Source of the DNA: Bacteroidia bacterium
Lineage (GTDB): Bacteria > Bacteroidota > Bacteroidia > AKYH767-A > 2013-40CM-41-45
Direction: 5' to 3'
Assembly: GCA_038206355.1 (NCBI GenBank)
Contig: JBBRAY010000014.1
Location: forward strand, 6,852 to 70,851
Length of the DNA stretch: 64,000 nt
Shown piece by piece: positions 1 to 52,758 of this stretch. Each line of letters begins with the position of its first letter. Within the stretch, counting starts at the first letter, position 1. A program made the translations under genes and the position numbers. The notes under the pieces were generated by a model. That model did not search any database. It was given only the letters and a program-made list of their open reading frames with translations, and was not told the DNA's origin.

Positions 1-19
1 TATTCCAACCGGTTTTAAA

Positions 20-57
20 CCAATCAATCAACTAATCAACTAATCAACCAATCAACC
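20..57. repeat. (C/T)AATCAAC heptamer/octamer tandem repeats
   Basis: ccaatcaatcaactaatcaactaatcaaccaatcaacc. A related atcaaccaatcaaccaatcc occurs at 43287..43306. Confidence 0.5.
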
Positions 58-164
58 GTATTCTCAAATCCCCCCCTCTTTTCTTTTGCCCTCCACCCAT
101 TATTCCATACATTTGTTTTCCCTCTCATCCTCCTGCCGATACATTTAACCTTTCTTCCTTTTGC

Positions 165-2105
165 ATGCCTAAAAAAATACTCCTCGTTTTCACCACCCTG
201 TTTTTATTCATCATCCTGGCTAGTCTGCTCAACCCGCACCAGTACGATGCCCGCGCTTCATTTCATACGCCGCAGGAAATAACCGCTTTCAAACAGCAGT
301 TCTTGACGGCAATAGGGCCCGGTGAATATTTTCTTACCTCTGAACATTGCCGCGGTTGTCATGGATTTGATTCTGCACAACTGGCAAACATTGACGAGAA
401 CGGAAATTCAGTAAACCTCTTCGACCACTGGCAAAGTACCATGATGGCCAATAGTGCCCGCGATCCGCTGTGGCGCGCAAAAGTGAGTCATGAGATACAG
501 GTCAATCCGGCACATGCCGCCGAACTCCAGGACAAATGCCTCGACTGCCATGCGCCTATGGGCCGCTATACGGCTATGTTTCATGGCATTCCTCATTATA
601 CACTTGCTGATCTGGCAACGGATTCGCTGGGCGCCGACGGCGTTTCATGTGCAAGTTGTCATACCATTGATTCAACCGTAGGACAAACATTTTCCGGCAT
701 CATCCCTTACGATACCACCAGAAATATTTATGGTCCGTTTACATCTCCTGTTGTAGGACCAATGCAACTGTATGAAGGATATACCCCGATGTACAGCACG
801 CACATGAATGAAAGCCGGCTGTGTTCTTCATGTCATACGCTCATGACTGAAAGTGTTGACCTCAACGGAAATTATACAGGCGGAGTTTTTCCTGAGCAGG
901 CTACCTATCATGAATACCTCAACTCCAGCTTTCCGGCAAATGGAATTACTTGTCAGGGTTGCCACATGCCGCATCTCGACGACGCCATCATTATTGCCAA
1001 CGGTCAGTCAGCACTTAACCCGCGCTACCCTTTCAACCAGCACGTATTTGTTGGCGGAAATGCTTTTATGCTGGAGATGATAAAAAATAATAAGGTGCAA
1101 CTTGGCGCTACTGCAGAAGACTGGCAGTTTGATACAACCATTGCAAATACGCTGGCATTGCTCAGGAATAAAACGATAAACTTTGATTTGCAACTCGACA
1201 GCTCTGCCAATGATACGGGTTTTTTCAGCGTGCGCATAGAAAATAAATCGGGACATAAATTTCCGTCGGGCTATCCGTCGCGGAGAGCGGTGGTACAGTT
1301 TGTAATGACTGACGCCACCGGAGATACCGTTTTCAAATCAGGAACTTTCGCTCCTGACTTCCGCGTTGTGGGCGAAACACCGGCGTATGAACCGCACCAT
1401 GATATTATCAGTCAGCAGGATGTGCCGCAGATTTATGAGCTTGCAATGGGTGACGTGAATTACAATTTCACTTCTGTGCTCGAACGTGCTGCCACACTTT
1501 TGAAAGACGACAGAATTCCGCCGGCAGGATTTACCACGACGCATTTTGCTTATGACACGGTGAAGATTTCCAATGATGCACTGGCTGATGATGATTTCAA
1601 TAAAATAAATACCGTTGAAGGTTCCGGCGTTGACGTTGTCCATTACCATATTCCGCTGAGTGCTGCGATTGGAAATGTTACCATTCATGCCAGGGTATAT
1701 TATCAGGCCGTGCCGCCGAAATGGGTGGATGAATTGTTTGCTTACAACAGCGCCGAGATTGATTCCTTCCGTATCATGTTCGACAATGCCGACCAATCGC
1801 CGATACTTATTGCTTCCGACAGCATCGTAAACATAGCCTTAAAAACGAAGGAAGAACAAAACAAGACAGCTGTAACTGTTTACCCTACTATTTCGCGCGA
1901 TGGAAAAGTGTATATCACGACCTCCGGAGAAACAGCACTACGCAGCATCGTTATCTATGATACCCGGGGGAAAATGGTCTCTTTCAATGAAATTCATGCG
2001 AAAAGCAGCAGATATACAGTGAACTTGCCTGAGCATCAAATTGTATATTTAATGAAAATTGAAACATCGAAAGGCATTGTTTACCGCAAAGTTGTGAGGG
2101 AGTAG
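165..2105 (+). CDS. multihaem c-type cytochrome (5 CXXCH motifs) with T9SS C-terminal sorting domain
   Basis: N-terminal signal peptide. Five CXXCH motifs (CRGCH, CLDCH, CASCH, CSSCH, CQGCH). C-terminal ~80 aa beta-rich tail typical of Por/T9SS CTD (VYPTISRDGKVYI...GIVYRKVV). Confidence 0.7.
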   Translation: MPKKILLVFTTLFLFIILASLLNPHQYDARASFHTPQEITAFKQQFLTAIGPGEYFLTSEHCRGCHGFDSAQLANIDENGNSVNLFDHWQSTMMANSARDPLWRAKVSHEIQVNPAHAAELQDKCLDCHAPMGRYTAMFHGIPHYTLADLATDSLGADGVSCASCHTIDSTVGQTFSGIIPYDTTRNIYGPFTSPVVGPMQLYEGYTPMYSTHMNESRLCSSCHTLMTESVDLNGNYTGGVFPEQATYHEYLNSSFPANGITCQGCHMPHLDDAIIIANGQSALNPRYPFNQHVFVGGNAFMLEMIKNNKVQLGATAEDWQFDTTIANTLALLRNKTINFDLQLDSSANDTGFFSVRIENKSGHKFPSGYPSRRAVVQFVMTDATGDTVFKSGTFAPDFRVVGETPAYEPHHDIISQQDVPQIYELAMGDVNYNFTSVLERAATLLKDDRIPPAGFTTTHFAYDTVKISNDALADDDFNKINTVEGSGVDVVHYHIPLSAAIGNVTIHARVYYQAVPPKWVDELFAYNSAEIDSFRIMFDNADQSPILIASDSIVNIALKTKEEQNKTAVTVYPTISRDGKVYITTSGETALRSIVIYDTRGKMVSFNEIHAKSSRYTVNLPEHQIVYLMKIETSKGIVYRKVVRE

Positions 2106-2187
2106 ATTATTCCCTTTCTTTGGAATCCCTAAAATATATTGGAATTACTATTAATTACTTCATCCTAAAATTAAACCCAATTTAAAA

Positions 2188-5079
2188 ATGAAACTTTCTA
2201 CTTTATGTCGTTTTCTGATGTCAGGTTCGTTTGCTCTGTTGGCATTTACAACGCAGGCGCAATTTGCATTTACAAATTCCAACAGCAAGTTCGCCTCACA
2301 AACGCATAGCGGATGTGCTGTAACTGTTGTTGACGTTAACAATGACGGACTGGATGATATCCTTGCCATGGATCAGAGTACTGATCTTGTTGTCAGGCTT
2401 CAAAACCGTGACGGGTCGTTCACGAGTTATTCTCTTGGACAGGTTTATGGTAGTAAGGTTTGGGGTATGGCAGCTGCTGATGTAGACCACAACGGATGGA
2501 AAGATGTAGTGGTCGGAAGTGGATCTGCAACACTTGTAAAACTGGGATGGAACGGTACTACAGTTACTTCAACAATTATTCCGCTGGCCGGAAATTATTT
2601 TGTGCAGAACGTACTCTTCGGAGATTTCAATAATGATGGTTGGGTTGACCTCGAAGTAAATGATGACAACGACTACGCAAAAATTTATGTGAATAACAAT
2701 GGCACGTTGAATCTCACAACAACACTCATCAATACTGAAATCAACCCGGGTATGACTTACGGAAATGATCCGTATGATTCAGGAAACTACGGTAGTGTGT
2801 GGACTGACTTCGACAATGACGGAGACATGGATCTTTACATTTCTCATTGCCGTCAGAGCACATCCAGCAGCACTGACCAGCGCAGAAGAGACCGTCTATT
2901 TGTGAATGACGGAAACAACAACTATACTGAAATGGCGCAGGCCTATGGCATTGAGGTTACCAACTTCAAACAAACATGGACAACAAGTTTTGGAGACATT
3001 GACAATGACGGCGACCAGGACATCGTAATGACGAACCACGGTGAGAACGGACAGATATTACAGAATGACGGAACAGGTCATTTCACTGACATCACCACCG
3101 GAAGCGGATTCCTGACCACCGGTTTTGATCCGATCGAATCCATGGTAGAAGATTTTGACAATGATGGTTACCTCGACATCTTAGTTTCAGGCGGAGGAGG
3201 CGGAAATTCTTACCTGCTTTATCACAACAACCACGACTACACTTTTACATTGGCTACGCTTCCTTTTCCAGCACAAAGCAATGGAATGCTTTCTTTCGGT
3301 TTGGGAGACTTAAACCACGATGGCAAAACAGACGTCTTTGCGTCTTATGGCAACGTGTATAATAATCCGACAAGTACTGATGACGTTCTCTTCCTTAACA
3401 CGACTTCAAACAACAATCATTTTATCACCTTCGCTCTTACAGGAACAGTGAGTAACATTGATGCTATCGGAGCAAAGGTTACCATTTATGGTCCATGGGG
3501 AGTGCAGGTTCGTGAAGTACGTGCAGGAGAAAGCTATGGTACTTCCAATTCAGCACAATGCCATTTCGGCATCGGCGCCAACACTGTTGTTGACTCTGCC
3601 CGCATTGACTGGCCTTCGCACCAGAATACGAATCATTTTACAAATCTTGCCGCTGATCAGTTTGTTACAGTAACTGAAGGCGGATGTGAAATCACAGGAA
3701 ATATTATCCCGGGTCCGTTCACACTTTGCACAGGACAAACAATTACACTTACAGCTGTGGGTGGATTTACTTCATACAACTGGTCGAATGGCGACAATTC
3801 ACAATCTACAGTAATCTCGACTCCGGGTTATTATAATGTAATGGTGACTGATGCAGGAGGATGCAAAGGCATTTCACCTTCTATTCAGGTCGTGGTGAAT
3901 CCGGACGAAACACCATCGGTGACTTCTTCAGGAGACCTGGTTTTCTGTGAAGGTGGAAGTGTTATGCTTACTTCTACTCCTGCTGCTGCTTATTCATGGT
4001 CATCAGGACAAACAACACAATCAATTACAGTTTCCGCTTCAGGAAGTTATACTGTTTCCATTCAGGGATTGTGCGCTGCATTTACTTCAAACGTTCAGCT
4101 TGTGAATGTACTTGCTGCGCCGGTTCCGGTTGCGGCAGATGATTCAGCGATCAGTCCGAATTCAATTACACTGACAGCAACAGGAAATGATATCTCCTGG
4201 TATGATACGCAAACAGGCGGAACATTGCTGGCTTCAGGTACATCTTATACTACTCCTGTACTTACCAATACCACTACCTATTGGGTGGAGGATAAAACAA
4301 GTTATGGCGGAGGAAATGCAGCAACAGGACAGCCATATCATACCGGCACAAGTTTATATAGTACCGGTGCCACCAATGGAGACCTTAAATTTGATGTTGC
4401 CGACAATTGTGTACTTGCAAGCGTGAAAGTTTATACCGGCACTGCAGGCACCCGTGAAATACAATTGTACAACTCTGTGGGTACATTGATAAATTCACTG
4501 GTAGTTAACATACCGGCTGACACAAGCATCATTACGCTTAATTTTGCACTCACTCCGGGTACAGGCTATTCCATTACAACCAACGGGGCGCTCAATACAA
4601 CGAACTTCGGAAGTATCAACCCGCAATTGCAACGCAGCAGTCAGGGTGTTGCTTATCCTTATACTGTGAACAACGTAATTTCCGTTACAGGATCAAATCA
4701 GGGTCAAGGCTACTACTACTATTTCTATGACTGGCAGATTGAACTTCCTGCAACAGTTTGCACAAGCGTAAGAATTCCTGTTCAGGCGATTATGCTTATC
4801 ACTGATGCGATCACAAACTTTACATCAGAAAATAATTTCATGGTATATCCAAATCCTGCTGATGAAAACGTAACTGTTTCTTTTGACAATGCAGGAACAC
4901 AAAAATCAAATGTTGCGTTCATCAATGCAATGGGACAGGTTGTTTCTTCAACTGCGATGGAAAATGTAGCGGGAAATTTCCACCGGACATTTGATGTCAG
5001 TGGATTTGCAAAGGGTGTTTATACCATTCATGTTGTTTCCAATGACAAAACATCTTTCCAGCGTCTGATCATTCAGTAA
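2188..5079 (+). CDS. FG-GAP/VCBS-repeat (CRTAC1 / ASPIC-UnbV-like) secreted protein with T9SS CTD
   Basis: Repeated DxDxDG / DxNxDG calcium-binding FG-GAP motifs (DVNNDGLDD, DFDNDGDMD, DIDNDGDQD, DFDNDGYLD). Ig-like repeats follow. C-terminal YPNPA...GVYTIHV T9SS tail. Confidence 0.7.
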   Translation: MKLSTLCRFLMSGSFALLAFTTQAQFAFTNSNSKFASQTHSGCAVTVVDVNNDGLDDILAMDQSTDLVVRLQNRDGSFTSYSLGQVYGSKVWGMAAADVDHNGWKDVVVGSGSATLVKLGWNGTTVTSTIIPLAGNYFVQNVLFGDFNNDGWVDLEVNDDNDYAKIYVNNNGTLNLTTTLINTEINPGMTYGNDPYDSGNYGSVWTDFDNDGDMDLYISHCRQSTSSSTDQRRRDRLFVNDGNNNYTEMAQAYGIEVTNFKQTWTTSFGDIDNDGDQDIVMTNHGENGQILQNDGTGHFTDITTGSGFLTTGFDPIESMVEDFDNDGYLDILVSGGGGGNSYLLYHNNHDYTFTLATLPFPAQSNGMLSFGLGDLNHDGKTDVFASYGNVYNNPTSTDDVLFLNTTSNNNHFITFALTGTVSNIDAIGAKVTIYGPWGVQVREVRAGESYGTSNSAQCHFGIGANTVVDSARIDWPSHQNTNHFTNLAADQFVTVTEGGCEITGNIIPGPFTLCTGQTITLTAVGGFTSYNWSNGDNSQSTVISTPGYYNVMVTDAGGCKGISPSIQVVVNPDETPSVTSSGDLVFCEGGSVMLTSTPAAAYSWSSGQTTQSITVSASGSYTVSIQGLCAAFTSNVQLVNVLAAPVPVAADDSAISPNSITLTATGNDISWYDTQTGGTLLASGTSYTTPVLTNTTTYWVEDKTSYGGGNAATGQPYHTGTSLYSTGATNGDLKFDVADNCVLASVKVYTGTAGTREIQLYNSVGTLINSLVVNIPADTSIITLNFALTPGTGYSITTNGALNTTNFGSINPQLQRSSQGVAYPYTVNNVISVTGSNQGQGYYYYFYDWQIELPATVCTSVRIPVQAIMLITDAITNFTSENNFMVYPNPADENVTVSFDNAGTQKSNVAFINAMGQVVSSTAMENVAGNFHRTFDVSGFAKGVYTIHVVSNDKTSFQRLIIQ

Positions 5080-5096
5080 ACAAATTATTAATCATA

Positions 5097-5130
5097 GAAA
5101 AGAGCGCTTCGATATGGGGCGCTTTTTTTT
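5097..5130 (+). terminator. putative rho-independent terminator after 2188..5079
   Basis: aaaagagcgc-ttcgatatgggg-gcgcttttttttt: GC stem followed by a 9-T run, 18 nt past the stop codon. Confidence 0.5.
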
Positions 5131-5285
5131 TGGAAACTTCGAACTTCGTTGTTCCCCGTGCCGGATCGGAAAGATAACATAGGACGAAGAAGTAACACCG
5201 ACAAACAGCAGTGTATCAGTATAAATGATAAAGATTCCTCTTTGCGCTTCGCTTCAATCGGATTGACAAATAAGGTTTATTATTA

Positions 5286-5336
5286 AGTGGCGGAAGAGAA
5301 AATTTGCGGATCGGGGGCAAATTTTCTCTTACGCCA
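5286..5336. repeat. 21-bp near-perfect inverted repeat (hairpin) in intergenic region
   Basis: gtggcggaagagaaaatttgc / ggatcgggg / gcaaattttctcttacgccac. The arms are reverse-complementary with one mismatch. Read directly from the sequence. Confidence 0.6.
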
Positions 5337-5464
5337 CAAATACCATTTATAGACTGTCCTCCCGAATGAAATGAGGAATCTCTTAAACTGAGCTGCTATA
5401 CAACAACCTAAAATTAAACCACAACCCTTTTTTATTTTACTTTTACGTCTGAAAAAATAAACCG

Positions 5465-6700
5465 ATGAAAAGAATTACCTGCGTTGTTTTCCTGTTCCAT
5501 TTAATATTCTTTCAGGCTTTTCCGCAGGCATTCATCAACTTCACCCGTTTTAATTCTCCACTACCCGATAATACCGTTCGTGCCATTGCTGTTGATGCGC
5601 AGGGAAGAAAATGGTTCGGTACAGATTACGGCATGGCAATATATAATGATACTTCATGGATCATTTATACCACAGTGAACAGCGCCATCTCCGACAATTC
5701 AATTAAGCACATCACCTTTGATGCTGCGGGCAATGCATGGATATGCACACAGGTTGGTGGCATTAATAAATTTGATGGCAACACATTCACCATTTTCAAT
5801 ACTTCAAATTCAGGAATTGCTTCGAACTATGTTCGCTGTATTGCAATTGACAGCAACGACGTAAAATGGATTTGCACAGATAACGGACTGAACAGTTTTG
5901 ACAATACTACCTGGACTCTTTATGATATTTCTAATTCTTCTTTGCCCATCAATAGCCTGGGAGCGATTGCTGTCGAAACCAACAACCAACGATGGATCGG
6001 AACCGTGAATGGCGGATTTGTGGATATGCTGGATACCGCTTTTACAACGTACGATATTGTAAACGGAGGTTTTCCTGATAACTCAGTTCTGGGGATCGTG
6101 ATTGACCACCTTGGATATAAGTGGTGCGCTACTCCTGCCGGCGGACTCGTGCGTTTTTATGGAGCCAATGGATATACTTTCAACTTTACTAATTCTACCA
6201 TCCCCAGTGAATCCTTTGACGCTGTTGATGTGGACTCTGCAGGCAATGTTTACCTTGGATCTTTTGACAATGGCGTAGTAAGAAAACAAGGCAACAATTT
6301 TTTTTCTTACAACACCTCCAATTCAGCCATGCCTGATGACATCGTTTTTTCTGTAGCCGTTGAACGCACAGGAATTATCTGGGCCGGAACTTCTGTGGAA
6401 GGTGTAGTTAGGATTGATGAACCACTTTATGTTCCGGTACTTGCTGCAGAAAGCCGGCGTTCATTTTCCGTTTATCCCAATCCCGTAAAGGACCATCTCA
6501 AAATACTTAGTGATGGCTTCTCATATGAAATAGTCGTTCAAATCATTCTATATAATTCAATCGGGTCACAGGTTCCCTTGCCAATTGACAACTGCGAACT
6601 TCCTGTTCAAATGGATGTTTCCTCCCTTCCTCCCGGAATTTACTTCCTTTCCATTACCTCCGGAAATAAAACCGTGAGCAGGAAAGTTATTAAGATGTAA
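5465..6700 (+). CDS. two-component-regulator propeller (Reg_prop) repeat protein with T9SS CTD
   Basis: Seven ~45-aa repeats of the form xAIAxDxxGxxWxGTxxGxxxxD. Signal peptide present. C-terminal SVYPNPV...GIYFLSI T9SS tail. Confidence 0.65.
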   Translation: MKRITCVVFLFHLIFFQAFPQAFINFTRFNSPLPDNTVRAIAVDAQGRKWFGTDYGMAIYNDTSWIIYTTVNSAISDNSIKHITFDAAGNAWICTQVGGINKFDGNTFTIFNTSNSGIASNYVRCIAIDSNDVKWICTDNGLNSFDNTTWTLYDISNSSLPINSLGAIAVETNNQRWIGTVNGGFVDMLDTAFTTYDIVNGGFPDNSVLGIVIDHLGYKWCATPAGGLVRFYGANGYTFNFTNSTIPSESFDAVDVDSAGNVYLGSFDNGVVRKQGNNFFSYNTSNSAMPDDIVFSVAVERTGIIWAGTSVEGVVRIDEPLYVPVLAAESRRSFSVYPNPVKDHLKILSDGFSYEIVVQIILYNSIGSQVPLPIDNCELPVQMDVSSLPPGIYFLSITSGNKTVSRKVIKM

Positions 6701-6784
6701 TGCGTTTTTGATGTCAGGAATTTAAGATAACGCAAATCCCTCCTGCCACTGTTTCGCATAACTTCACGCCACTAATTTTTCACA

Positions 6785-8299
6785 TTGTCTTCCTTAAAGA
6801 AACTCGCTTCGCAAACAGCAGTGTATGGATTGAGCAGCATTGTCGGCCGCATGCTCAATTATTTGCTCGTGCCGCTTTATACCCGCGTTTTCGTTACAGG
6901 TGAATACGGCGTGGTAACGGAGCTTTATGCATACGTTTCTTTCTTCAATATCATTTTTACTTATGGACTGGAGACGGCATTTTTCCGTTATGCAGAAAAA
7001 GAAAAAGGCAATCCGAAAGTATATTCCACTTCTCTCATCAGCATCATTGCCTCATCCATTTCTCTTGCGCTGGTGATCATTTTATTTTCTTCTCCCATCG
7101 CTTCATGGATGAATCACAGTGAAGGGTCTGAGAAAATGTTACCGCAGTACATTAGTTGTTTTGCCCTCGTGCTGGCCTTTGATGCCATCAGCGCCATTCC
7201 GTTTGCAAGACTCCGGCAGGAAGCAAGGGCGTGGCGTTTTGCATCCATCAAGATGGTGTGGATACTTGTGAATGTCGGACTGAATATTTTCTTCCTCGTC
7301 ATATGCCCTTCTGTTAAAGACGGCATGTTCCATGATTTCATCAGCAAAGTTTATGACCCCTCTATTGGAATAGGATATGTTTTTATCAGCAACCTCGCAG
7401 CAAGTGGTATCGTTCTGATTTTTCTTTCTCCTGAAATTTTCAAAATAAATTATTCCTTCGATAAAAAACTCTGGACAACGATGATCATCTATTCGCTTCC
7501 GTTGATGGTTGCAGGTTTTGCCGGGATGATCAATGAAACGTTTGACCGCATCATGTTGCCCCGCCTGATTGCAGATAAGTCAACAGCACTTTCACAACTT
7601 GGTATTTACGGTGCGTGTTACAAGCTGTCTATATTAATGTCACTCTTTGTGCAAACCTTTCGCTATGCAGCAGAACCGTTTTTCTTTTCGCAGGCGTCGA
7701 GCGACAATGCAAAGCGAACCTATGCGCGCGTCATGCATTACTTCGTACTCATGTGTGCATTTATTTTTCTGGCCATCATGATGTACATGGATCTTGTACA
7801 AAAATTAATCGGCGCAGAATACCGCGAAGGAATAGCCATCGTTCCCATCTTACTCATGGCCAATCTTTGTCTCGGCGTGTTTTATAATTTATCAATATGG
7901 TATAAGCTAACCCATCAGACAAAATGGGGAGCATGGCTTTCCATTATCGGTGCGGCGATCACACTCATACTTAATTTTTCACTGATCCCTGCGATGGGTT
8001 ACATGGGCGCTGCATGGGCAACACTGATATGTTATGCAGCGATGATGATTATCTCGTATCTCGTCGGACAAAAATATTACCGGGTGAATTATAATATCCC
8101 GTCATTCATTTATTTTATAGGAACAGCATTGGCATTGTATTTTGTCAGCGAACAGATCAGGAATCATTTTATGTTTGATAAAAACCCGATGATGCTCATC
8201 AACACCGGACTTCTGCTCGTTTATCTTCTCTCTGCAGGGATTTATGAGAGGCGCAAAAATCCCTACATTCGCATCCCTGAAAAAAAGGAAGCTCCCTGA
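6785..8299 (+). CDS. polytopic membrane protein, MOP/Wzx-type polysaccharide biosynthesis (flippase-like) family
   Basis: ~500 aa with at least 12 hydrophobic segments. Length and architecture fit oligosaccharide flippase / polysaccharide biosynthesis proteins. The ORF opens on TTG; the true start is uncertain. Confidence 0.5.
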   Translation: MSSLKKLASQTAVYGLSSIVGRMLNYLLVPLYTRVFVTGEYGVVTELYAYVSFFNIIFTYGLETAFFRYAEKEKGNPKVYSTSLISIIASSISLALVIILFSSPIASWMNHSEGSEKMLPQYISCFALVLAFDAISAIPFARLRQEARAWRFASIKMVWILVNVGLNIFFLVICPSVKDGMFHDFISKVYDPSIGIGYVFISNLAASGIVLIFLSPEIFKINYSFDKKLWTTMIIYSLPLMVAGFAGMINETFDRIMLPRLIADKSTALSQLGIYGACYKLSILMSLFVQTFRYAAEPFFFSQASSDNAKRTYARVMHYFVLMCAFIFLAIMMYMDLVQKLIGAEYREGIAIVPILLMANLCLGVFYNLSIWYKLTHQTKWGAWLSIIGAAITLILNFSLIPAMGYMGAAWATLICYAAMMIISYLVGQKYYRVNYNIPSFIYFIGTALALYFVSEQIRNHFMFDKNPMMLINTGLLLVYLLSAGIYERRKNPYIRIPEKKEAP

Positions 8300-8336
8300 A
8301 TTAATGGATCCGGAGCCATAAAAACCAGAATCTCAA

Positions 8337-8771
8337 ATGGAAGTAAGAATCATAAATAAATCGAAACATCCGCTCCCCGGTTATGAAACCATTCATTCTG
8401 CGGGTATGGATTTGCGTGCGAACCTTGACAGCCCGGTTACACTTCTGCCATTGCAGCGTGCCATGGTTGCCACCGGACTTTTCATTGAACTTCCTGCAGG
8501 AACAGAAGCCCAGGTAAGGCCCCGCAGCGGACTGGCAGCAAAAAAAGGAATTACCGTTCTCAACGCACCCGGTACCATTGATGCCGATTACCGCGGTGAA
8601 GTGAAAGTGATACTCGTGAATCTTTCAAATGATCCGTTCGTAATTGAAGACGGGGAACGCATTGCACAACTCATCGTTGCGAAACATGAACGCGTGGAAT
8701 GGAAAGAAACAGCCGATCTGCTGGAAACCGAAAGGGGTACGGGGGGATTTGGATCAACGGGAAATAGGTAG
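8337..8771 (+). CDS. dut: dUTP diphosphatase
   Basis: 144 aa with canonical dUTPase motifs ([24 protein letters not shown], and a C-terminal GGFGSTG P-loop-like motif V). Confidence 0.9.
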
Positions 8772-8774
8772 GCA

Positions 8775-8792
8775 TCCCGATAGCTATCGGGA
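8775..8792. repeat. 18-bp perfect palindrome TCCCGATAGCTATCGGGA
   Basis: Read directly, 4 nt after the dut stop codon. The identical 18-mer also occurs at 50021..50038 and 51172..51189. Confidence 0.6.
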
Positions 8793-8935
8793 GGCGGTAT
8801 GCAATAGGCAAGGGTTTCAAATAGAACTTGCAGCTTGGTATTTTTGCCCACTGCTTACTGCCCACTACTTACTACAGAATTGCAGGTGCGAAACGAATAT
8901 TTTTTATAGAATTTAATTAAACTCAGATACATAAA

Positions 8936-9937
8936 ATGAAGATCATAGTCCCCATGGCGGGTATGGGAAAGCGGATGCGACCGCATACTTTAACGATCCC
9001 GAAACCATTGATCCCTGTTGCAGGAAAGCCAATCGTACAATGGCTTGTAGAGGATATTATTAAAGTCTGTAAGGAAAAAGTAACCGATATTGCTTTTGTC
9101 GTAGGGCATTTCGGACAAGAGACAGAAGCCCGTCTGATTAAGATTGCCGAAAGCCAGGGCGCCAAAGGACATATTTATTACCAGGATGAACCTCTGGGAA
9201 CTGCACATGCCATCCTGTGTGCAAAAGATCAGCTGGATGGAAAAGTGATCGTCGCTTTTGCCGATACATTATTCCGTGCCGACTTTACGATGGACGAAGA
9301 CAAAGAAGGCATCATCTGGGTGAATAAAATTGATGACCCTAAAATGTTTGGAGTCATAAAAGTGGATGATAAAGGTGTGATTACCGACTTTGTAGAGAAG
9401 CCGCAAACTTTTGTGAGCGATCTGGCAATCATCGGAATATATTATATGAAAGACGGGGCTTACCTCCGCAAGGAAATGCAGTTCCTCGTTGACAATAACA
9501 TCAAGGAGAAAGGCGAATTTCAACTGACGAATGCCCTTGAGAACATGAAGCAAAAGGGAACGAAATTTTTTCCGGGAAAAGTGGATGAATGGCTTGACTG
9601 CGGAAATAAGGACGCAACGGTGTACACCAATCAGCGCGTACTCGAGATGCATAAAGGCGAATTGAAGATTCCGGCATCTGTGAAACTGGAAAATGCGCTC
9701 GTTATTCAGCCCTGTTTCATCGGGGAGAATTGTACCTTTATTAATTCTGTAGTAGGTCCGCATGTATCTATAGGAGCAAATACAAAAGTGGAAAACTCGA
9801 ACATCAGCAACAGCATCATCCAGACCAATTGCAAAATAAAAAATGCCGTTATCAGTAATTCAATGATTGGTAACTTTGCTGAATACGCCCGTAATGCAGA
9901 TGACCTCAGCATCGGGGACTATTCTACACAGCATTAA
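8936..9937 (+). CDS. sugar-phosphate nucleotidyltransferase with C-terminal left-handed beta-helix domain
   Basis: N-terminus MKIIVPMAGMGKRMRP...LIPVAGKPI is the NTP_transferase G-x-G-x-R signature. The C-terminal hexapeptide-repeat region is rich in I/V-x-x-N-x. Confidence 0.65.
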   Translation: MKIIVPMAGMGKRMRPHTLTIPKPLIPVAGKPIVQWLVEDIIKVCKEKVTDIAFVVGHFGQETEARLIKIAESQGAKGHIYYQDEPLGTAHAILCAKDQLDGKVIVAFADTLFRADFTMDEDKEGIIWVNKIDDPKMFGVIKVDDKGVITDFVEKPQTFVSDLAIIGIYYMKDGAYLRKEMQFLVDNNIKEKGEFQLTNALENMKQKGTKFFPGKVDEWLDCGNKDATVYTNQRVLEMHKGELKIPASVKLENALVIQPCFIGENCTFINSVVGPHVSIGANTKVENSNISNSIIQTNCKIKNAVISNSMIGNFAEYARNADDLSIGDYSTQH

Positions 9938-19191: not shown

Positions 19192-21078
19192 ATGCTGAAA
19201 TTTGCCTGGTTGATTCCCGTACTGCCTTTACTGGGATTTTTGTGCATCAGCTTTTTTCAAAAACAATTGCCCGGAAAGTCAGCAGGAGTAATCGGCTCAC
19301 TCACCGTTCTTGGCTCATTTATAATATCATGCGGTCTGTTTTTTCAATTATCAGAACCGGTAACAATCACCTATTTTGATTGGATAAATGCCGGAACTCT
19401 CAAGATTCCAGTATCATTTCTGATAGATCCGGTTTCGCTTGTAATGCTATTCATCATTACCGGTATTGGATTTCTTATCCACGTTTATTCTATCGGATAC
19501 ATGTCGCACGATGCGGCTTTCGGCAGGTTTTTTTCTTACCTGAATCTCTTCGTTTTCTTCATGCTCATCCTCGTTCTCGGAAGCAACTACGTGCTCATGT
19601 TTGCCGGTTGGGAGGGCGTAGGTTTATGTTCCTATCTGCTCATCGGTTTCTGGTTTAAGAACAATGAATATAACAATGCCGCCAACAAGGCATTCATTAT
19701 GAATCGTATCGGAGACCTTGGCTTTCTGCTCGGCATTATCCTCATGTTTACGACTTTCGGAAGTGTTCAGTTCAGCGATGTGTTCAGCGCTGCAGGTAGT
19801 ATCCCTGATAACAATTCCACCATCGTTGCAATTACAATGTTGCTCTTTGTCGGGGCAATGGGAAAGAGCGCACAGATTCCACTTTATACATGGCTGCCTG
19901 ATGCTATGGCCGGACCGACACCCGTATCTGCATTGATCCACGCCGCAACAATGGTAACAGCGGGAATTTACATGGTGGTCAGGTCTAATATTCTTTATTC
20001 CATCGCACCATCCACACTTGAGTTCATCACCATCATCGGAATGGCAACAGCAATTTTTTCTGCAACCATTGCACTGGCACAGACAGACATAAAAAAAGTA
20101 CTTGCCTATTCAACCTTATCACAGCTTGGATATATGTTTGTGGCACTTGGCGTAGGCGCGTATTCCACAGGCTTGTTTCACGTTACCACGCATGCATTCT
20201 TCAAAGCATTGCTATTCCTTGCTGCAGGAAGTGTGATACATGCAATGAGCGGTGAACAGGACATCAGACGCATGGGCGGTCTCAGAAAAAAATTACCCGT
20301 TACTTATTTTGTTTTTCTGATTGGTACACTTGCCATCAGTGGCATTCCGCCTTTTGCCGGATTCTTTTCGAAAGACGAAATACTTGCCAAGGCATACATG
20401 CACAGCGATCTTTTGTTTATCCTTTTGTCGGTGACATCTGTGATTACAGCGATCTATATGTTCCGGCTTTTATTTCTGACCTTCTTCGGAAATTTCAGAG
20501 GTACTGAAAATCAAAAACATCACCTTCATGAATCGCCTGCAGTAATAACAATTCCCTTGATTATCCTTGCTGTGCTTTCCACACTTGGTGGATTTCTGGG
20601 TTTGCCTGCAGTGTTTACAGAGCACCACCTGTTTGGGAATTTTTTAGCGCCCGTTCTTTCTACAGCAGGAATAGCAGGTCATGCAGAGCCATCACATTTA
20701 TTTGAATACACGCTGATGGGAATCTCGGTTCTTGCACTGGCATTCATCATCTACATGACTTACGAGCGCTTCGCGAAAAAGGAAATTGTTCCTTCTCTCG
20801 ATGAATCGGAATTCAAACCGTGGTATAGGATTCTTTACAATAAATATTACATTGACGAGTGGTACGACAGAATATTTGTCAGGCCTTTATATAAATTCGG
20901 CGATATATGCTATAAAATATTTGACATTAAAATTGTTGACGGAGTTGTAAATATGGTCGGCAAGGGTGTTCACCGCGGAAGTGAAGTTATTCGGTTTGCG
21001 CAAAACGGCACGGTAGGGTTCTACATCTTTGCTATGGTGGTGGGAATTATTCTGGTATTGGTTGTGAATTTATTTTAA
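19192..21078 (+). CDS. nuoL: NADH-quinone oxidoreductase subunit L
   Basis: 628-aa polytopic antiporter-like subunit. Conserved WLPDAMAGPTPVSALIHAATMV motif; long amphipathic C-terminal extension typical of NuoL. Confidence 0.9.
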   Translation: MLKFAWLIPVLPLLGFLCISFFQKQLPGKSAGVIGSLTVLGSFIISCGLFFQLSEPVTITYFDWINAGTLKIPVSFLIDPVSLVMLFIITGIGFLIHVYSIGYMSHDAAFGRFFSYLNLFVFFMLILVLGSNYVLMFAGWEGVGLCSYLLIGFWFKNNEYNNAANKAFIMNRIGDLGFLLGIILMFTTFGSVQFSDVFSAAGSIPDNNSTIVAITMLLFVGAMGKSAQIPLYTWLPDAMAGPTPVSALIHAATMVTAGIYMVVRSNILYSIAPSTLEFITIIGMATAIFSATIALAQTDIKKVLAYSTLSQLGYMFVALGVGAYSTGLFHVTTHAFFKALLFLAAGSVIHAMSGEQDIRRMGGLRKKLPVTYFVFLIGTLAISGIPPFAGFFSKDEILAKAYMHSDLLFILLSVTSVITAIYMFRLLFLTFFGNFRGTENQKHHLHESPAVITIPLIILAVLSTLGGFLGLPAVFTEHHLFGNFLAPVLSTAGIAGHAEPSHLFEYTLMGISVLALAFIIYMTYERFAKKEIVPSLDESEFKPWYRILYNKYYIDEWYDRIFVRPLYKFGDICYKIFDIKIVDGVVNMVGKGVHRGSEVIRFAQNGTVGFYIFAMVVGIILVLVVNLF

Positions 21079-21149
21079 GAAAAGATATTCGAAGAGTCAC
21101 CGGTTGTCAGGTTGAATTTTAATCTGAAAATCGCTGACAAAGATCAAAT

Positions 21150-22652
21150 ATGTTAATCGCATTAATTTTTTTTCCTTTTGTTGCCGCACTTGCAACACTG
21201 CTTGCCAAAGAAAAGGCAAAGCATGTTGCCTTTGGTGCCGCCGTCCTTGAATTTGCGCTTAGCATTTGGATGGTGATGCAATTCAATCCGCAGGGAGGAA
21301 CCCAGTTTAATGTTGATTACTGGTGGGTACCATCGCTGGGGATCAGTTTCAAAGCAGGCATGGATGGAATCAGTATGTTGTTGGTGCTGCTCACTACATT
21401 TCTCGTTCCGATAATCATTTTATCTTCTTTTTCAAATGGCGAGGCAGGCTCCACATCGCGGGTACAACCTCGCGATCTCAAATCTAAGATCTCAAATCTC
21501 CCGTTGTTCTATGCGCTAATACTAATGATGCAGATGGCATTGGTAGGCGTATTCGTTGCGCTGGATGGATTTTTATTTTACATCTTCTGGGAACTTGCAC
21601 TGATACCGATCTATCTCATCTGCCTCATGTGGGGTGGAAAAGACAGCTTCCGCATCACACTTAAATTTTTCATCTATACCCTGACAGGAAGTCTCCTGAT
21701 GCTCGTAGGTTTAATTTATTTATTCCTGCAAACACCGGGCGTTCACACTTTTGATATTGCTGCATTCTATAAACTTCATCTTTCTTCTGGTGAACAGGGA
21801 CTATTGTTCTGGGCATTCTTTGCAGCTTTTGCCATCAAGATGCCAATATTTCCATTTCACACCTGGCAGCCTGATACCTATACTGATGCGCCAACGCCGG
21901 GAACCATGCTGCTTTCAGGTATCATGCTGAAAATGGGTGTGTATGGCGTGATCCGCTGGTTGTTGCCCGTAGTTCCTTTGGGAGTGAAAGAGTGGGGGAC
22001 AATGGCGATCGTACTGTCCGTAACAGGCGTGGTGTATGCATCAGTAATTGCGCTCGTACAAAAAGATTTCAAACGGCTCATCGCTTATTCAAGTATTGCG
22101 CACGTCGGATTAATTTCTGCCGGAATATTTTCATTGAACATGCAAGGTTTGCAAGGGGGGATGATTCAGATGGTAAGCCACGGAATCAATGTGGTGGGAT
22201 TGTTTTTTATTGCCGATATCATCATGTCGCGCATGAATACCCGCACACTGAATGAACTTGGCGGCATCAGAAATATTGCGCCCTCATTTGCAACTTATTT
22301 TGTCATCATACTCCTTGCATCGGTTGCGCTGCCGCTTACTAACGGATTCATCGGGGAGTTTTTACTCATCAACGGATTGTACCAATACAATGCATGGATG
22401 GCTGCAGTGGCCGGACTCACCATAATTCTCGGCGCGGTATATATGCTCGTGGCTTACAAAAAAATCGCGTTGGGTGAAATCAATAAACTCACGGAAAAAT
22501 TTACTGACCTCACCATGCACGAAAAATCAGTAATGATTCCATTGGTGATCATGATATTTGTTATCGGAATTTATCCCAAACCGTTTCTTGATATTGCAGA
22601 ACCAAGTGTGAAAAATATTTTGGACATCATACAGGGAGCCACTATAAAATGA
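21150..22652 (+). CDS. nuoM: NADH-quinone oxidoreductase subunit M
   Basis: 500-aa antiporter-like subunit. FHTWQPDTYTDAPTPGTMLLSG motif. Confidence 0.9.
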   Translation: MLIALIFFPFVAALATLLAKEKAKHVAFGAAVLEFALSIWMVMQFNPQGGTQFNVDYWWVPSLGISFKAGMDGISMLLVLLTTFLVPIIILSSFSNGEAGSTSRVQPRDLKSKISNLPLFYALILMMQMALVGVFVALDGFLFYIFWELALIPIYLICLMWGGKDSFRITLKFFIYTLTGSLLMLVGLIYLFLQTPGVHTFDIAAFYKLHLSSGEQGLLFWAFFAAFAIKMPIFPFHTWQPDTYTDAPTPGTMLLSGIMLKMGVYGVIRWLLPVVPLGVKEWGTMAIVLSVTGVVYASVIALVQKDFKRLIAYSSIAHVGLISAGIFSLNMQGLQGGMIQMVSHGINVVGLFFIADIIMSRMNTRTLNELGGIRNIAPSFATYFVIILLASVALPLTNGFIGEFLLINGLYQYNAWMAAVAGLTIILGAVYMLVAYKKIALGEINKLTEKFTDLTMHEKSVMIPLVIMIFVIGIYPKPFLDIAEPSVKNILDIIQGATIK

Positions 22653-24022
22653 CAACATTAATCATACTTGCTGCACTGGGAATTGTCATCCTGTTCTCTG
22701 AAATAATCGGGTACAGGAAAGTGGTGTTGCCTCTTATTTTCATCGGACTTTCATTGGCACTGGTAGCAACGGTAATGGACTGGAATACCAACAGGCATTA
22801 CCTCAGTGAAATGATGATCGTGGACAATTATGCTGTTGCATTTACTGCGCTGATGATTGCCATTACCATCATCTGGTTTATTTTTTCTCCCGGGTTCTTT
22901 CATGATCAAAGTTCACGCGTTGACCATTTCGCCCTCATCGTTTTTGCGCTGATCGGTGCGCAATTATTTACATCTTTTGGAAACATGATCATGCTATTTC
23001 TTGCTGTTGAAATCCTGTCCATCCCAATGTACATCATGGCCGGAAGCAAAAAAAGCAGCCTGGCTTCCAATGAAGCGTCATTAAAATATTTCCTGATGGG
23101 CGCATTTGCAACAGGGTTTCTTTTGTTTGGAATTACGCTGATCTATGGACAGACCGGATCTTTTAATTTACAGATAATTTCTCAGTCACTGGCCCGACAG
23201 GAAGGTGGAGGAGGCGTCATGGTTGTGGCCGGCATATTATTGATTCTGGTAGGACTGTCATTTAAAGTTTCTGCAGTGCCATTTCATTTCTGGGCACCTG
23301 ATGTTTACACCGGCGCTCCTACTGAAGTGACTGCGTACATGAGTACAGTGGTGAAGACTGCAGCGTTCGCAGGTTTTTTCAAATTGTTTGCAACATGCTT
23401 CAATGGTTCATCACAGATATGGGTAAACACTGTAATCGTACTATCTGCACTTACGATTATAGTAGGAAACATAACAGCAGTTTACCAGACCAATTTCAAA
23501 AGGATGCTGGCCTATTCCAGTATTGCACATGCCGGATATATGCTCATGGCCATTGTTGCATTAAACAGTTATGCCCAACAGTCCATCTTTTATTATGCTG
23601 TTGCTTATTCTGTTTCTTCCATTGCCGCATTTGGTGTGTTGTTGCTCGTAAGTCATGTAACCAAAAATGATTCGATTGAATCTTTCAAAGGACTGGCTAA
23701 GAAAAATCCTTTGCTGGCATTTATCACACTTCTCGCTATGCTTTCATTAGCGGGTATCCCACCCATGGCCGGTTTTTTTGCCAAATATTACATCTTTACG
23801 GCTGCACTTCAACAGCATTATACGGGACTGGTTATTGTCGCCGTATTGGGTTCATTGATTGGAGTCTATTATTATTTCCGTGTAATCATCGCCGTCTTTA
23901 AAAGCGATTCGGAAGGCATTGAAATACCAATGAACGGGATTTATAAAGCAGCACTTTTTTTCATTTCAATTGCTGCATTGGTGCTTGGACTCATGCCCGG
24001 ACTGATAGCCGGATTACTCTGA
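22649..24022 (+). CDS. nuoN: NADH-quinone oxidoreductase subunit N
   Basis: 457-aa antiporter-like subunit. FHFWAPDVYTGAPTEVTAYMS motif. ATGA start/stop overlap with nuoM. Confidence 0.9.
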   Translation: MTTLIILAALGIVILFSEIIGYRKVVLPLIFIGLSLALVATVMDWNTNRHYLSEMMIVDNYAVAFTALMIAITIIWFIFSPGFFHDQSSRVDHFALIVFALIGAQLFTSFGNMIMLFLAVEILSIPMYIMAGSKKSSLASNEASLKYFLMGAFATGFLLFGITLIYGQTGSFNLQIISQSLARQEGGGGVMVVAGILLILVGLSFKVSAVPFHFWAPDVYTGAPTEVTAYMSTVVKTAAFAGFFKLFATCFNGSSQIWVNTVIVLSALTIIVGNITAVYQTNFKRMLAYSSIAHAGYMLMAIVALNSYAQQSIFYYAVAYSVSSIAAFGVLLLVSHVTKNDSIESFKGLAKKNPLLAFITLLAMLSLAGIPPMAGFFAKYYIFTAALQQHYTGLVIVAVLGSLIGVYYYFRVIIAVFKSDSEGIEIPMNGIYKAALFFISIAALVLGLMPGLIAGLL

Positions 24023-24252
24023 TTTATCATACCATCTCCCTCTGAAACAGGCATCCTCAAGGCGGTTCAAAAAAAATTGTTTTGTTGAAAATATGTTTTA
24101 CTTTTGAACTCCTTAACAAACCCGGATTACTAAACTGTCTCAAAGAACTTCATGTTCTTATTTGAATGCCGCAAGCGCGGAGGTGTTTTTTATCGCAGAT
24201 TACGACAACCAAAATAGAATCAAACTCAATAACCAATTTTAATTTTATCAAT

Positions 24253-27200
24253 ATGAAAAAGAACAATTACTTCAAAGGGATTTTAGGATGTCTGCTTTTG
24301 TTTTTTCTCTTTGTTAATTTATCAGGTGTTAAAGCCCAGATGAATGTGACAATCGGTGCAAACAACGGAACGAATTCCACAACCAGTTATCCCTGCCCGA
24401 TCCAGGATTTTTATTATGCCACACGTGCACAGTATTTATATACAGCAACGGAACTCGCCAATGCGGGCATTACCCCCGGCGGACATATTGATTCCATCGG
24501 TTGGATAGTAGAGGCCACTACAATTGGAGGGGTTATGCTGCTGGAGGGCTACACAATTTCGCTTCTCAATACCGGCATAACAACATTGGATCTTGCTATA
24601 TGGGAACCCGGTGCTGCTACGGTTTATGGTCCGCAGAATTATTCATACCCTTCCGGATATGCAGGTAATGTAATGTTCGCAACCTCTCCATTCACTTACA
24701 CAGGCGGAAACCTGATCATTGAAGTTTGTGGAGGTTTGTCAACAGGTGGATATATCAGTAACCCGCAATGCCAGTGGACAACTGCACTTGGATTTAATGC
24801 TTCTCACCAGTGGCATCAGGACGGCGCTGATGGTTGTGGAAATATTGCAACTACTAATTTTGCAACTGCTGACTATCGTCCCCGCCTGATTATGACCTAT
24901 ACTTGCCCGGTAGGAACCATCACTGCAGGGTTCACAGCAAGCAACAACAATCCCCCACTCAGTACGCCGGTAAATTTTACTGACCAGAGCTCAAACAATA
25001 CGATCGGATGGATCTGGGATTTCGGGGATGGAGATACTGCTCATTCACAAAATCCTTCTCACAGTTATACTACTGTGGGAACATATTATGTTTCCCTTAG
25101 TGCAATAGGTTGTTCATCGTCTGATATGGCTTATGATACCATTGTTGTTCAGGGCGCACCTATTGCCATGATCAATCCGTCATCTTTGTCTTCTAACCTT
25201 GCCTGCGGAGATTCAGCAACATACCAGATTACCATCAGCAACACCGGAACCGGTGACCTCACATACAGCACAAGCGGATCTTCCAATTCTCAGGTCAGAA
25301 TGCTTGCACTTACTTATGGAGTAGATCAGTTTTCAGAATACCCTTCTACAATTGCTGCCATCAACAGCTACTTTACAAATTATGTTCTCACGGATACCAA
25401 TACAACAAACCCTGTTGCTGTTGCCAACCTTCTTGTAGGCAACAATGTTCTTCTTTTACCTGAAGTGGAAAACGGCGTACCTTCCGTTTATAACAGTTGG
25501 GCATATGCCATCAACAGCTTTCTGCTCACCGGTGGAACAGTAATCGAATGCGGGGCAAGTAATAGTTATGATACCTGTATCAGTACGATTGGTATCTGGA
25601 ACAGTACAAACTACACTGTGGTTGACGTCGGATTGGGTGGCACAAATATGGTTACTGTCGACAGCATTACGCCGCTTACACAGGGACTTTCCGGTTCTTC
25701 ATTCCCGGCAACAACTGCTTGCTGGGCAAACCAGTGGGGCAACAGTGACAAACGCACTGTGGTTTCTTATCAGGGAAAAGATGTCGTTAGCTATCGCAAA
25801 GTCGGTGGCGGAAAAGCAATCTTCATCGCCTTTGATTATTATGGTACAAGCAACGACACGAAGAAAATTATCGCCAATGCAGTGCAGTGGGGAGGGCAAT
25901 CAGGACTTCCTTCGTGGATCACTGTTGATCAGAATTCAGGAACTGTAACGCCGGCCGGATCTACAATTATGAATGTAACATTTCATGCTACAGGATTACC
26001 TGCAGGTACCTACTACGGAATAATTGGCGTGAATACCAATGACCCGAACAGTCCTTACATCGCTGTTTCATGTACATTAACAGTAACAGGCGGACCACTG
26101 GTTCAATTGTCTGATGCATGTGTTGATTTTGGAACCATTATGGAAAACACAACAGTTCAACGTATATTTACTTTGACCAATAGCGGTTGCGATTCATTAA
26201 CTGTTTCAGGAATTACTGCAAGCTTACCGGAGTACACCATTACCGGAGTTCCTGCTTTATTGTTGCCGGGCGCTTCTGCACAGGTTACAGTAACTTTTAA
26301 TCCGACATCAGTAGGTACATTTAATGGAAGCATTACCATAAATAATAATGCAGGGGATACAACTTTCTGTCTGAATGGATCTGCAGGCCCTGCTCCGGTA
26401 ATCAATACCATTACCGGTGTGACCAATACAATTCTTTCCTGCACGGGAACTGTTAATTCCAATTTCTCAATCGGTAATACCGGCGGAAGCGATCTCAACT
26501 ATACCATTACAGGAGTTCCTTCGTGGGCGCAGCTTTCGTCAACTAACGGATCTGTTGTTGCTGCGGGATCTGCTACAATCATAGTTACATTTAATGCGGC
26601 CGGTCTCAATGACGGCACGTACAATGCAAATATTACCGTTACCACCAACGATCCGGTAACACCAACAGTAACCATTGCACTTTCACTTACTGTTGACGGA
26701 GATCCTGTGGTTGGTATGTCAGTGCTTTGCTTGAATTTTGCACCGATATTTGAAGGCGCAATGTCCAATCAGACATTTACCATCACCAACAGCGGCTGCG
26801 ATACATTGAATGTATCTTCTCTGATTCCGAGTTTACCGGAATATACAGTGAGTGCAGCACCGGGTAATATTCTTCCCGGAGGATCAGCAACAATTACTGT
26901 TACGTTTCATCCACTTGTTGCCGGAAACTATAATGGCACCTTGCAAATTCAGAATACAGATAATGATACAACGATTTGTCTGACAGGTGAAGGACTGGTT
27001 GCACCGCACATCAATCCGAATTCAACTTTCAGCGTTTCACACAACGTGCCGGCATGTAATGCAACAGACACAACTTCTTTTACAATTTCAAATACCGGCG
27101 GAAGCGACCTTAACTTTAATATCACAGGAGTTCCTTCTTGGGCTTCTCTTTCTGCCACTAGCGGAACAGTGCCTGCATCAAGTTCCCAGATTATAACTAT

Positions 27201-32814: not shown

Positions 32815-32971
32815 TTGAGAGCGGTTTGAAGTTTGTCGTTTTTCAGAACATCCAAATGTAAAGAGAAGATTGATATAAAAATTGGAAATCCGGCTAACCA
32901 CAAAAGAAGGAAATGAATAAAAAAAATCCCGATCACTTTAAGCCACCGGGATTTTAATATGATGATAGAAA

Positions 32972-43277: not shown

Positions 43278-43286
43278 TTTTTTAAA

Positions 43287-43306
43287 ATCAACCAATCAAC
43301 CAATCC
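43287..43306. repeat. ATCAACCAATCAACCAATCC repeat between convergent PAP2 and ABC genes
   Basis: Same motif family as 20..57. Read directly. Confidence 0.45.
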
Positions 43307-52672: not shown

Positions 52673-52758
52673 GTCGCTAACTTTTAAGTAAATCAAAATT
52701 TATTAAACGGTTTTCATTGCCAACCGCCTACTACCTCCAGCCTCCTGCCGCTTTCCTC

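Follow-up and report, generated by a model that had tools for sequence, protein, structure and literature searches.

A predicted T9SS-exported pentahaem cytochrome and its conserved calcium-propeller partner in Bacteroidia

What could a c-type cytochrome with five haem-binding motifs do beyond the cell envelope, if it carries a sorting domain of the type IX secretion system (T9SS)? The question is raised by a gene encoding 646 amino acids (aa) at positions 165..2105 (+ strand) of a 64,000-nt stretch of a Bacteroidia bacterium genome (GCA_038206355.1, contig JBBRAY010000014.1, positions 6,852 to 70,851); this whole stretch is called the window below. Our answer, to which we assign a probability of about 0.55, is that the product is a secreted, non-catalytic pentahaem relay that would act outside the outer membrane together with a beta-propeller protein encoded directly downstream. 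The fold and the sorting signal of the product are each of a known kind, their combination is undescribed, and a conserved and uncharacterised partner goes with them.

The start of the open reading frame (ORF) fits the N-termini of the homologues, in which M1 is nearly invariant. The first 22 residues form a putative Sec-type signal peptide (165..230, +), with MPKK followed by an 18-residue hydrophobic core; the hydropathy peak covers residues 4-20, a helix is modelled by AlphaFold2 at residues 2-22, the segment is variable among homologues, and the N-terminus has no lipobox cysteine. In the alpha-helical haem-binding cap (348..965, +) the motifs C62RGCH, C125LDCH, C162ASCH, C220SSCH and C263QGCH were located. 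There are exactly five CXXCH sites, between residues 62 and 267, and they contain all ten cysteines of the protein, which bears out the initial annotation, where five were placed in the N-terminal 270 aa. The chance expectation, estimated from residue frequencies, is about 0.002 CXXCH per protein of such size, and five of them by chance are not credible because no other ORF of at least 80 aa in the window has even one. Not one of the five varies in 32 Bacteroidota homologues, nor in 118 sequences that reach down to about 32% identity. Behind the cap a stem built as a beta-sandwich of the immunoglobulin type (Ig-like) and a family-specific extension were recognized (1152..1844, +, residues about 330-560), with the invariant H364 and H411 and a KDNRIPPxGF motif, and with the loop G363-H-K-F-P-S-G-Y370-P at 1251..1277 (+).

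The cytochrome families suggested earlier (c554, NapC/NirT, decahaem) did not hold, since every curated multihaem model scored under its cut-off: the MtrC/MtrF domain (PF22113) 25.5 vs 30, cytochrome c7 23.2 vs 24.8, Cytochrome_C554 (PF13435) 16.1 vs 20.8, NrfH (TIGR03153) 26.6 vs 134.2, OmcA/MtrC (TIGR03507) 19.5 vs 209.3 and ExtKL (NF040886) 36.2 vs 250. The family belongs instead with the low-potential pentahaem cytochrome c552 of Thermochromatium tepidum and with the multihaem selenoprotein MccSep/ExtKL of Geobacter sulfurreducens (GSU2937-2936). The family profile matched the c552 structure 5ze8 with an E value of 5.2e-6 when it was built from 32 sequences and of 1.4e-7 when it was built from 118, and it matched MccSep (9wt8) with an E value of 1.8e-4, all five CXXCH motifs being colinear; in the 5ze8 alignment the haem motifs within the covered part also align in the same order. 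With 32 close homologues AlphaFold2 gave an unusable haem domain (per-residue confidence, pLDDT, 51), and after the addition of 87 Chloroflexota-type homologues (an alignment of 118 sequences) the pLDDT reached 90.6 and the predicted template modelling score 0.79. The predicted architecture consists of the signal peptide, a helical five-haem cap, the Ig-like stem with an extension of about 160 residues, and a C-terminal domain (CTD). The top Foldseek match in the PDB, far ahead of the others, was again 5ze8 (E 1.5e-17, target-normalised template modelling score (TM) 0.68, 550 aligned columns, 17% identity); MccSep was not seen among the Foldseek matches listed. The haem motifs occupy homologous positions and a pentahaem cytochrome fold is predicted, so the cytochrome assignment itself stands; by modelled fold and motif order, the protein is a member of the c552/MccSep ('PHC') pentahaem superfamily. 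This family has been discussed for cable bacteria, ExtKL, Gsu2801 and c552, the last of these likewise having no assigned function (PMC11976967).

The resemblance to c552, the best match by both profile and fold, extends to the cap and the Ig-like stem, to an H-x-x-P-x-G-x-P stem loop (PHAMPTGAP in c552, GHKFPSGYP here) and to a histidine after haem 5. The two proteins differ in that c552, with 435 aa and from a purple sulfur bacterium, has no CTD, whereas the present cytochrome has about 160 extra residues (400-560) and a T9SS CTD; moreover, a histidine of c552 aligns with M94 here, suggesting another axial ligand. MccSep shares the five colinear haem motifs, the cap-and-stem architecture and a loop, GHSIPDGUP, which is homologous by alignment to GHKFPSGYP. 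It is set apart by the score against the NF040886 equivalog (36 bits, cut-off 250) and by its periplasmic location, in contrast to the T9SS CTD carried here. The c552/PHC fold has also been related to the archaeal filament AvECN (PMC11976967), which might speak for a protein that, once secreted, polymerises into a cytochrome nanowire, a filament of haem-bearing subunits outside the cell. We consider this extremely unlikely: the full Ig-like stem, the 160-residue extension and the CTD are all kept, no sign of inter-subunit haem stacking was seen, and no filament-assembly genes lie nearby.

The last part of the protein (1878..2102, +, residues 572-646) is a T9SS type A C-terminal sorting domain, as had been proposed: TIGR04183 gives 31.3 bits against a cut-off of 23 over residues 572-644. 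Among PDB chains the family profile picks up CTDs (8glk_D, E 0.0078, and that of gingipain R2, 5hfs), and in Foldseek the predicted domain superposes on substrate CTDs bound to the translocon (8gl6_D, TM 0.82, root-mean-square deviation (rmsd) 1.9 A; 8gl8_D, TM 0.80, rmsd 2.1 A). It is an add-on to the conserved core, which according to the family profile search spans residues of about 50-555; nevertheless it is kept in 72/80 orthologues, where the match runs to the CTD end, down to 45% identity. The motif residues P574, G602, Y628 and K642 are conserved among homologues, and TIGR04183 is also passed by the more divergent members P0169, P0172, P0195 and P0133. Could the C-terminal beta-sandwich still be vestigial or non-secretory, and the cytochrome periplasmic? 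For such a location one could cite the Pfam model Por_Secre_tail (PF18962), which stays below its gathering score (19.2 vs 27), several close relatives of 527-543 aa that have no C-terminal domain at all, and the periplasmic MccSep (PMC13510729). The TIGR04183 score above the cut-off, the fold shared with translocon-bound CTDs at a TM of 0.8, the retention in 72 of the 80 orthologues, the conserved motif residues, the divergent members recognized by the same model and a strong CTD on the operon partner all argue in the other direction, and a periplasmic cytochrome is therefore regarded as very improbable. By the testable criteria of sorting-domain score and domain fold the cytochrome is a T9SS type A cargo, secretion itself being predicted.

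As in the canonical cargo of this type (gingipains, RemA, HBP35), a Sec signal, putative in the present protein, is combined with an Ig-like CTD which makes up about the last 75 residues and is recognized by TIGR04183, and the CTD of the cytochrome can be superposed on RemA-type CTDs. The known cargo proteins differ from it in being proteases, adhesins, glycoside hydrolases and haem-binding proteins. In the literature combining T9SS with cytochrome or haem no multihaem-cytochrome cargo was found described, most subscription journals lying outside the full-text coverage, and the word 'cytochrome' is absent from a 2022 T9SS review.

What was overlooked in the initial annotation is the conserved association of the cytochrome with the next gene. 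This FG-GAP/ASPIC gene (2188..5079, +, 963 aa) starts 82 nt past the cytochrome stop; no terminator-like site was detected in the gap, and together with the short distance this is consistent with co-transcription. Its product consists of an FG-GAP beta-propeller with DxDxDG calcium loops, a CRTAC1-like UnbV/ASPIC domain, Ig_7 domains and a T9SS type A CTD (42.1 bits, TIGR04183), and it matches human cartilage acidic protein 1 (9etn). For the neighbourhood analysis 784 ORFs of 80 GTDB loci were clustered, and the 70 loci whose downstream flank measures 1.5 kb or more were informative. In 57/70 the partner lies downstream on the same strand at a median gap of 83 nt, and in 4/70 it lies downstream on the opposite strand. 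In six loci (L011, L014, L018, L015, L042, L055) the FG-GAP match begins about 860-880 nt past the cytochrome and not at about 80 nt, which suggests that a small gene is inserted there or that the partner is extended by a divergent N-terminal part.

The invariant residues of the partner, compared over 54 orthologues, belong mostly to the DxDxDG calcium loops, to the cysteines of the Ig domain and to the PNP and GxY motifs of the CTD. The idea of a redox site in this protein was abandoned, because no histidine is invariant and there are only calcium-loop aspartates and Ig-domain cysteines; its conserved residues give the partner the look of a propeller for calcium-dependent binding and not of a redox enzyme. 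A region just before the CTD, residues about 700-870, is also conserved, has no Pfam match and contains the invariant F735, R756, N785, Y794, R816, Y825, W849 and C858. No useful literature was found on UnbV together with cytochromes.

Whether the cytochrome is itself an enzyme was judged at its haem ligands and at the stem loop; its nearest characterised relative is an enzyme in which that loop is employed. MccSep is a periplasmic polysulfide reductase in which the active site is formed by the His/Cys-ligated haem 2 (Cys239) and by Sec325 of the loop GHSIPDGUP (PMC13510729). Neither residue is present here. The position of Sec325 is taken by Tyr370, and no cysteine exists beyond the CXXCH motifs, TGG being aligned to the QCCT of MccSep. 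A reductase of the MccSep type was accordingly rejected on three counts, namely the NF040886 score, the absence of Sec or Cys in the loop and the missing Cys239 ligand. Tyr370 is invariant in the Bacteroidota clade; as a catalytic residue for the whole family it was dismissed, since the position holds Phe in 57/87 Chloroflexota-type relatives and Ile or His elsewhere. As candidate axial ligands H293, H364, H411 and M200 are invariant, H213 is found in 113/118 and M94 in 112/118 sequences. Six conserved candidates for five haems suggest four His/His sites and one His/Met site with no open site left, and a relay is favoured over catalysis because the conserved histidines and methionines suffice to make all five haems six-coordinate.

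A surface-exposed multihaem enzyme with a chemistry unlike that of MccSep, one haem turning over peroxide or oxyanions of sulfur or nitrogen, would still agree with the homologous loop of MccSep, with the Tyr370 invariant within the Bacteroidota clade and with three extra invariant histidines (H34, H117, H249) of the same clade. Peroxide or thiol-redox genes near several homologues (CCP_MauG, AhpC/TSA redoxins, OsmC) can be cited for it as well. We nevertheless think it improbable: the residue equivalent to the selenocysteine varies among the Chloroflexota-type relatives as given above, the haem-ligating cysteine is absent, enough His and Met are conserved for six-coordination, and the redox genes are sporadic, unconserved neighbours, of which the AhpC/TSA-like redoxins could equally serve cytochrome maturation. 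The neighbours themselves are a di-haem CCP/MauG peroxidase, AhpC/TSA redoxins, a mono-haem cytochrome c, thioredoxin and OsmC, which adjoin several members without being conserved across the family (L001/L002 8694-9752 (-), L007 5378-6403, the P0035 locus, L085 9756-10621, L083 12019-13163). Six residues, H34, H117, H249, H412, H493 and M538, are invariant or nearly so only in the Bacteroidota T9SS clade, in addition to the candidate haem ligands conserved throughout the family; they could belong to a further site for a metal or cofactor, or to a face that touches the partner.

Proteins of other lineages in which the same pentahaem core occurs in different company bear on the role of a relay. 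In three of them (P0228, L086 4722-8150; P0240, L087 6001-9570; P0183, L088 4470-7295) the core is fused to a propeller of the pyrroloquinoline quinone-dependent glucose/sorbosone dehydrogenase type (PF07995, 71-139 bits), with an F5/8 type C carbohydrate-binding domain in some but not all of these fusions; a mono-haem cytochrome c domain (P0193) and a metallo-beta-lactamase domain (P0260) were found as further fusion partners. P0240 sits among T9SS cargo genes, and the tail of P0228, read by eye, is of a sorting type, being Gly-rich, hydrophobic and then Arg-rich. Also read by eye, the outward routes differ by lineage, with the T9SS CTD in Bacteroidota and a lipobox in the Chloroflexota homologue P0259. 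Four nt after P0228 in L086 a 744-aa lipoprotein is encoded, for which a weak GH79-like similarity (E 0.15) was noted as a lead only. The dehydrogenase fusions can be understood as a classical dehydrogenase with a built-in cytochrome acceptor, and by analogy they support a relay role of the core at the cell envelope or outside it. Cytochrome modules secreted in the service of extracellular carbohydrate oxidoreductases are known from the cytochrome domains of fungal cellobiose and pyranose dehydrogenases and from Cbp2D/Cbp2E of Cellvibrio japonicus. Common to these and to the present system as we propose it is an extracellular haem protein which relays electrons for a co-secreted or fused enzyme. 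The differences are that their modules are mono-haem, of b- or c-type and of an unrelated fold, and that the partner here is an FG-GAP/ASPIC propeller without a recognisable redox cofactor site.

A relay outside the cell may also be the end of a respiratory chain. As an extracellular electron-transfer terminal wired to the quinone pool through an outer-membrane conduit, the cytochrome would pass electrons to insoluble Fe(III), Mn(IV) or humics, or take them from Fe(II), in the manner of OmcA/MtrC. In Shewanella, OmcA and MtrC are lipoproteins exported by the type II secretion system and docked on the MtrAB conduit; like the present protein they are c-type cytochromes with several haems, and they are displayed beyond the outer membrane, a location which is predicted here; they differ from it in fold and in haem count (five motifs here), with scores far under the cut-offs. 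For a respiratory terminal one can point to the predicted surface or extracellular location of a multihaem protein, to the weak similarity to domains II/IV of MtrC/MtrF (25.5 bits) and to the closest GTDB homologue (80% identity), from a water-column metagenome-assembled genome (MAG) of Lac Pavin, an iron-rich lake. The relation of the PHC fold to archaeal extracellular cytochrome filaments and to proteins of the Geobacter ext clusters (PMC11976967) can be added to these. On the other hand the MtrC and OmcA models were not passed (25.5 vs 30 and 19.5 vs 209), and the neighbourhoods in the 80 loci have no conserved gene for a porin, a periplasmic multihaem protein or a quinol dehydrogenase. The window encodes subunits of complex I and nothing related to extracellular electron transfer. 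Activated sludge, lakes and soil are the sources of the carriers, which are MAGs of Chitinophagales, Saprospiraceae and Flavobacteriales, groups made up mostly of aerobic heterotrophs. We regard a respiratory terminal as unlikely, although it deserves consideration. The proposal of the initial annotation, a component of extracellular electron transfer, stands in so far as a multihaem and T9SS-tagged protein is concerned; with no conduit or respiratory gene conserved nearby and with MtrC/OmcA scores under the cut-offs, the protein is a candidate only.

The secreted relay that we prefer could be realised as follows. The apoprotein would cross the inner membrane by Sec, five haems would be attached covalently by the periplasmic cytochrome c maturation system, and folding would take place in the periplasm. 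The CTD would then be recognised by the T9SS translocon and the folded holoprotein moved across the outer membrane, where the CTD would be removed and the cytochrome released or anchored to the surface; the partner would take the same export route. Outside, the cytochrome would relay electrons and the calcium-binding propeller would supply substrate or surface binding, an arrangement for which the cytochrome modules joined to sugar dehydrogenases outside the cell offer an analogy.

Several observations weigh against this proposal. The 80 loci give no sign of a path by which electrons could cross the outer membrane, and among their 784 ORFs no neighbour other than the partner is conserved. The partner is absent within the flank in 9/70 loci, and in its 54 orthologues it has neither an invariant histidine nor a recognisable redox-cofactor motif, and a redox enzyme is therefore not obvious in it. 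In three Chloroflexota loci the homologue is surrounded by housekeeping genes with no FG-GAP gene linked to it, thus the pairing is specific to the Bacteroidota branch. The axial ligands were assigned from conservation alone, AlphaFold2 placing no haems, and an open catalytic site is possible; the three extra invariant histidines and the sub-threshold Pfam score of the CTD, both given above, have to be counted here as well. Furthermore, all named homologues come from MAGs.

In a wider and more tentative sense, for which we would give clearly less than even odds, the T9SS-exported pentahaem cytochrome and the CRTAC1-like calcium propeller may constitute a so far unrecognised two-protein extracellular redox system in thousands of mostly uncultured Bacteroidia. 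Possible roles of the pair are the reductive mobilisation of iron or manganese, the reduction of humics or quinones, and the supply of electrons to oxidative polymer breakdown. If the cytochrome is exported in its haem-loaded form, T9SS would be shown to handle redox-cofactor proteins that are assembled in the periplasm; if the two-protein system is real, T9SS would acquire a role in extracellular electron transfer and the Bacteroidota a capacity that is not currently attributed to them. Members of this phylum are abundant in lakes, soils and wastewater plants, and few cases are considered electroactive. The cytochrome-propeller pair is a concrete two-gene system and a more specific lead than an electron-transfer function as such, and it could provide the first functional context for bacterial ASPIC/UnbV proteins. 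It bears also on the evolution of multihaem scaffolds that this branch shares its fold with c552 and MccSep yet lacks both catalytic residues of MccSep.

The family is large. In the first homology search 2,902 matches were scored, the 120th best of which is still 55% identical and about 645 aa long, and an exhaustive profile search returned 4,015 clusters at 50% identity with E<=1e-3, of which 847 reached E<=1e-30. Relatives are encoded in no fewer than 593 species of GTDB. The 80 best loci there are all from Bacteroidota MAGs (Chitinophagales, Saprospiraceae, Flavobacteriales and unclassified Bacteroidia) sampled from lakes, activated sludge, soil and groundwater, and no cultured carrier was seen in the protein searches or in these 80 loci. 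Homologues, where named, bear unspecific titles ('T9SS type A sorting domain-containing protein', 'cytochrome c family protein', 'hypothetical protein'). Because an exact-sequence look-up of the window protein gave no record, the upstream context was drawn from orthologues.

The partner gene is followed by a third CTD gene (5465..6700, +, 411 aa) with Reg_prop repeats and a CTD of 40 bits (TIGR04183); its product, a propeller protein, scores 81.5 bits against the PorZ equivalog, the cut-off of which is 260, and is thus PorZ-like but not PorZ. Synteny of this gene with the cytochrome pair was seen in L003 alone. The 'run of T9SS cargo genes' reported earlier is real in that the two ORFs next to the cytochrome carry CTDs; it is unremarkable in that at least ten ORFs of the window bear a CTD, and of these at least nine, the cytochrome not included, pass Por_Secre_tail. 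The others lie at 2188-5079, 5465-6700, 24166-28308, 28580-30259, 37683-39203 and 39354-42176, and on the minus strand at 30283-32901, 47955-49721 and 51071-52696. The T9SS cargo of the window includes PKD/Ig-rich, beta-helix and Sortilin/Vps10-like proteins; no core T9SS genes were identified among the window ORFs scanned. At 19192-24022 (+) three consecutive Proton_antipo_M proteins (NuoL/M/N-like) are encoded, the first with a NuoL-type N-terminal domain, which indicates complex I or an Mrp-type module and is consistent with a respiratory organism.

Upstream of the cytochrome a promoter of the Bacteroidota type was recognized (85..115, +), with TTTG as the -33 element (85-88), TACATTTG as the -7 element (TAnnTTTG, 108-115) and a spacing of 19 nt; its consensus is that of Bacteroides promoters. 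It lies in a pyrimidine-rich tract (61-164), and its -7 box ends 49 nt before the ATG. TATATTTG is found at the equivalent place in L003, and 21/49 orthologue upstream regions have a TAnnTTTG box no more than 150 nt ahead of the ATG. No Rfam family matched in positions 1-9000 of the window. The tract and the tandem repeats described earlier are both present: the 8-nt unit AATCAAC[T/C] (AATCAACT) is repeated at 21..57, without strand assignment, in 3.9-4.6 copies, the array of 3.9 copies being at 26-56. It recurs at 43286-43305, and the two-unit pattern has 7 matches in the window against 0.69 expected. The repeat has no conserved counterpart upstream of the L003 orthologue, which is 80% identical. 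As a regulatory element the CAATCAA repeat was rejected on account of this absence from the nearest orthologue and of the recurrence at 43286; it is probably a dispersed short repeat outside the function of the gene. Other 8-mer arrays were seen upstream of orthologues (GTGATTAG, 9.6 copies, in L010; ATTTAACC, 6 copies, in L036), and such arrays may form one group of short repeats scattered between the genes of these genomes.

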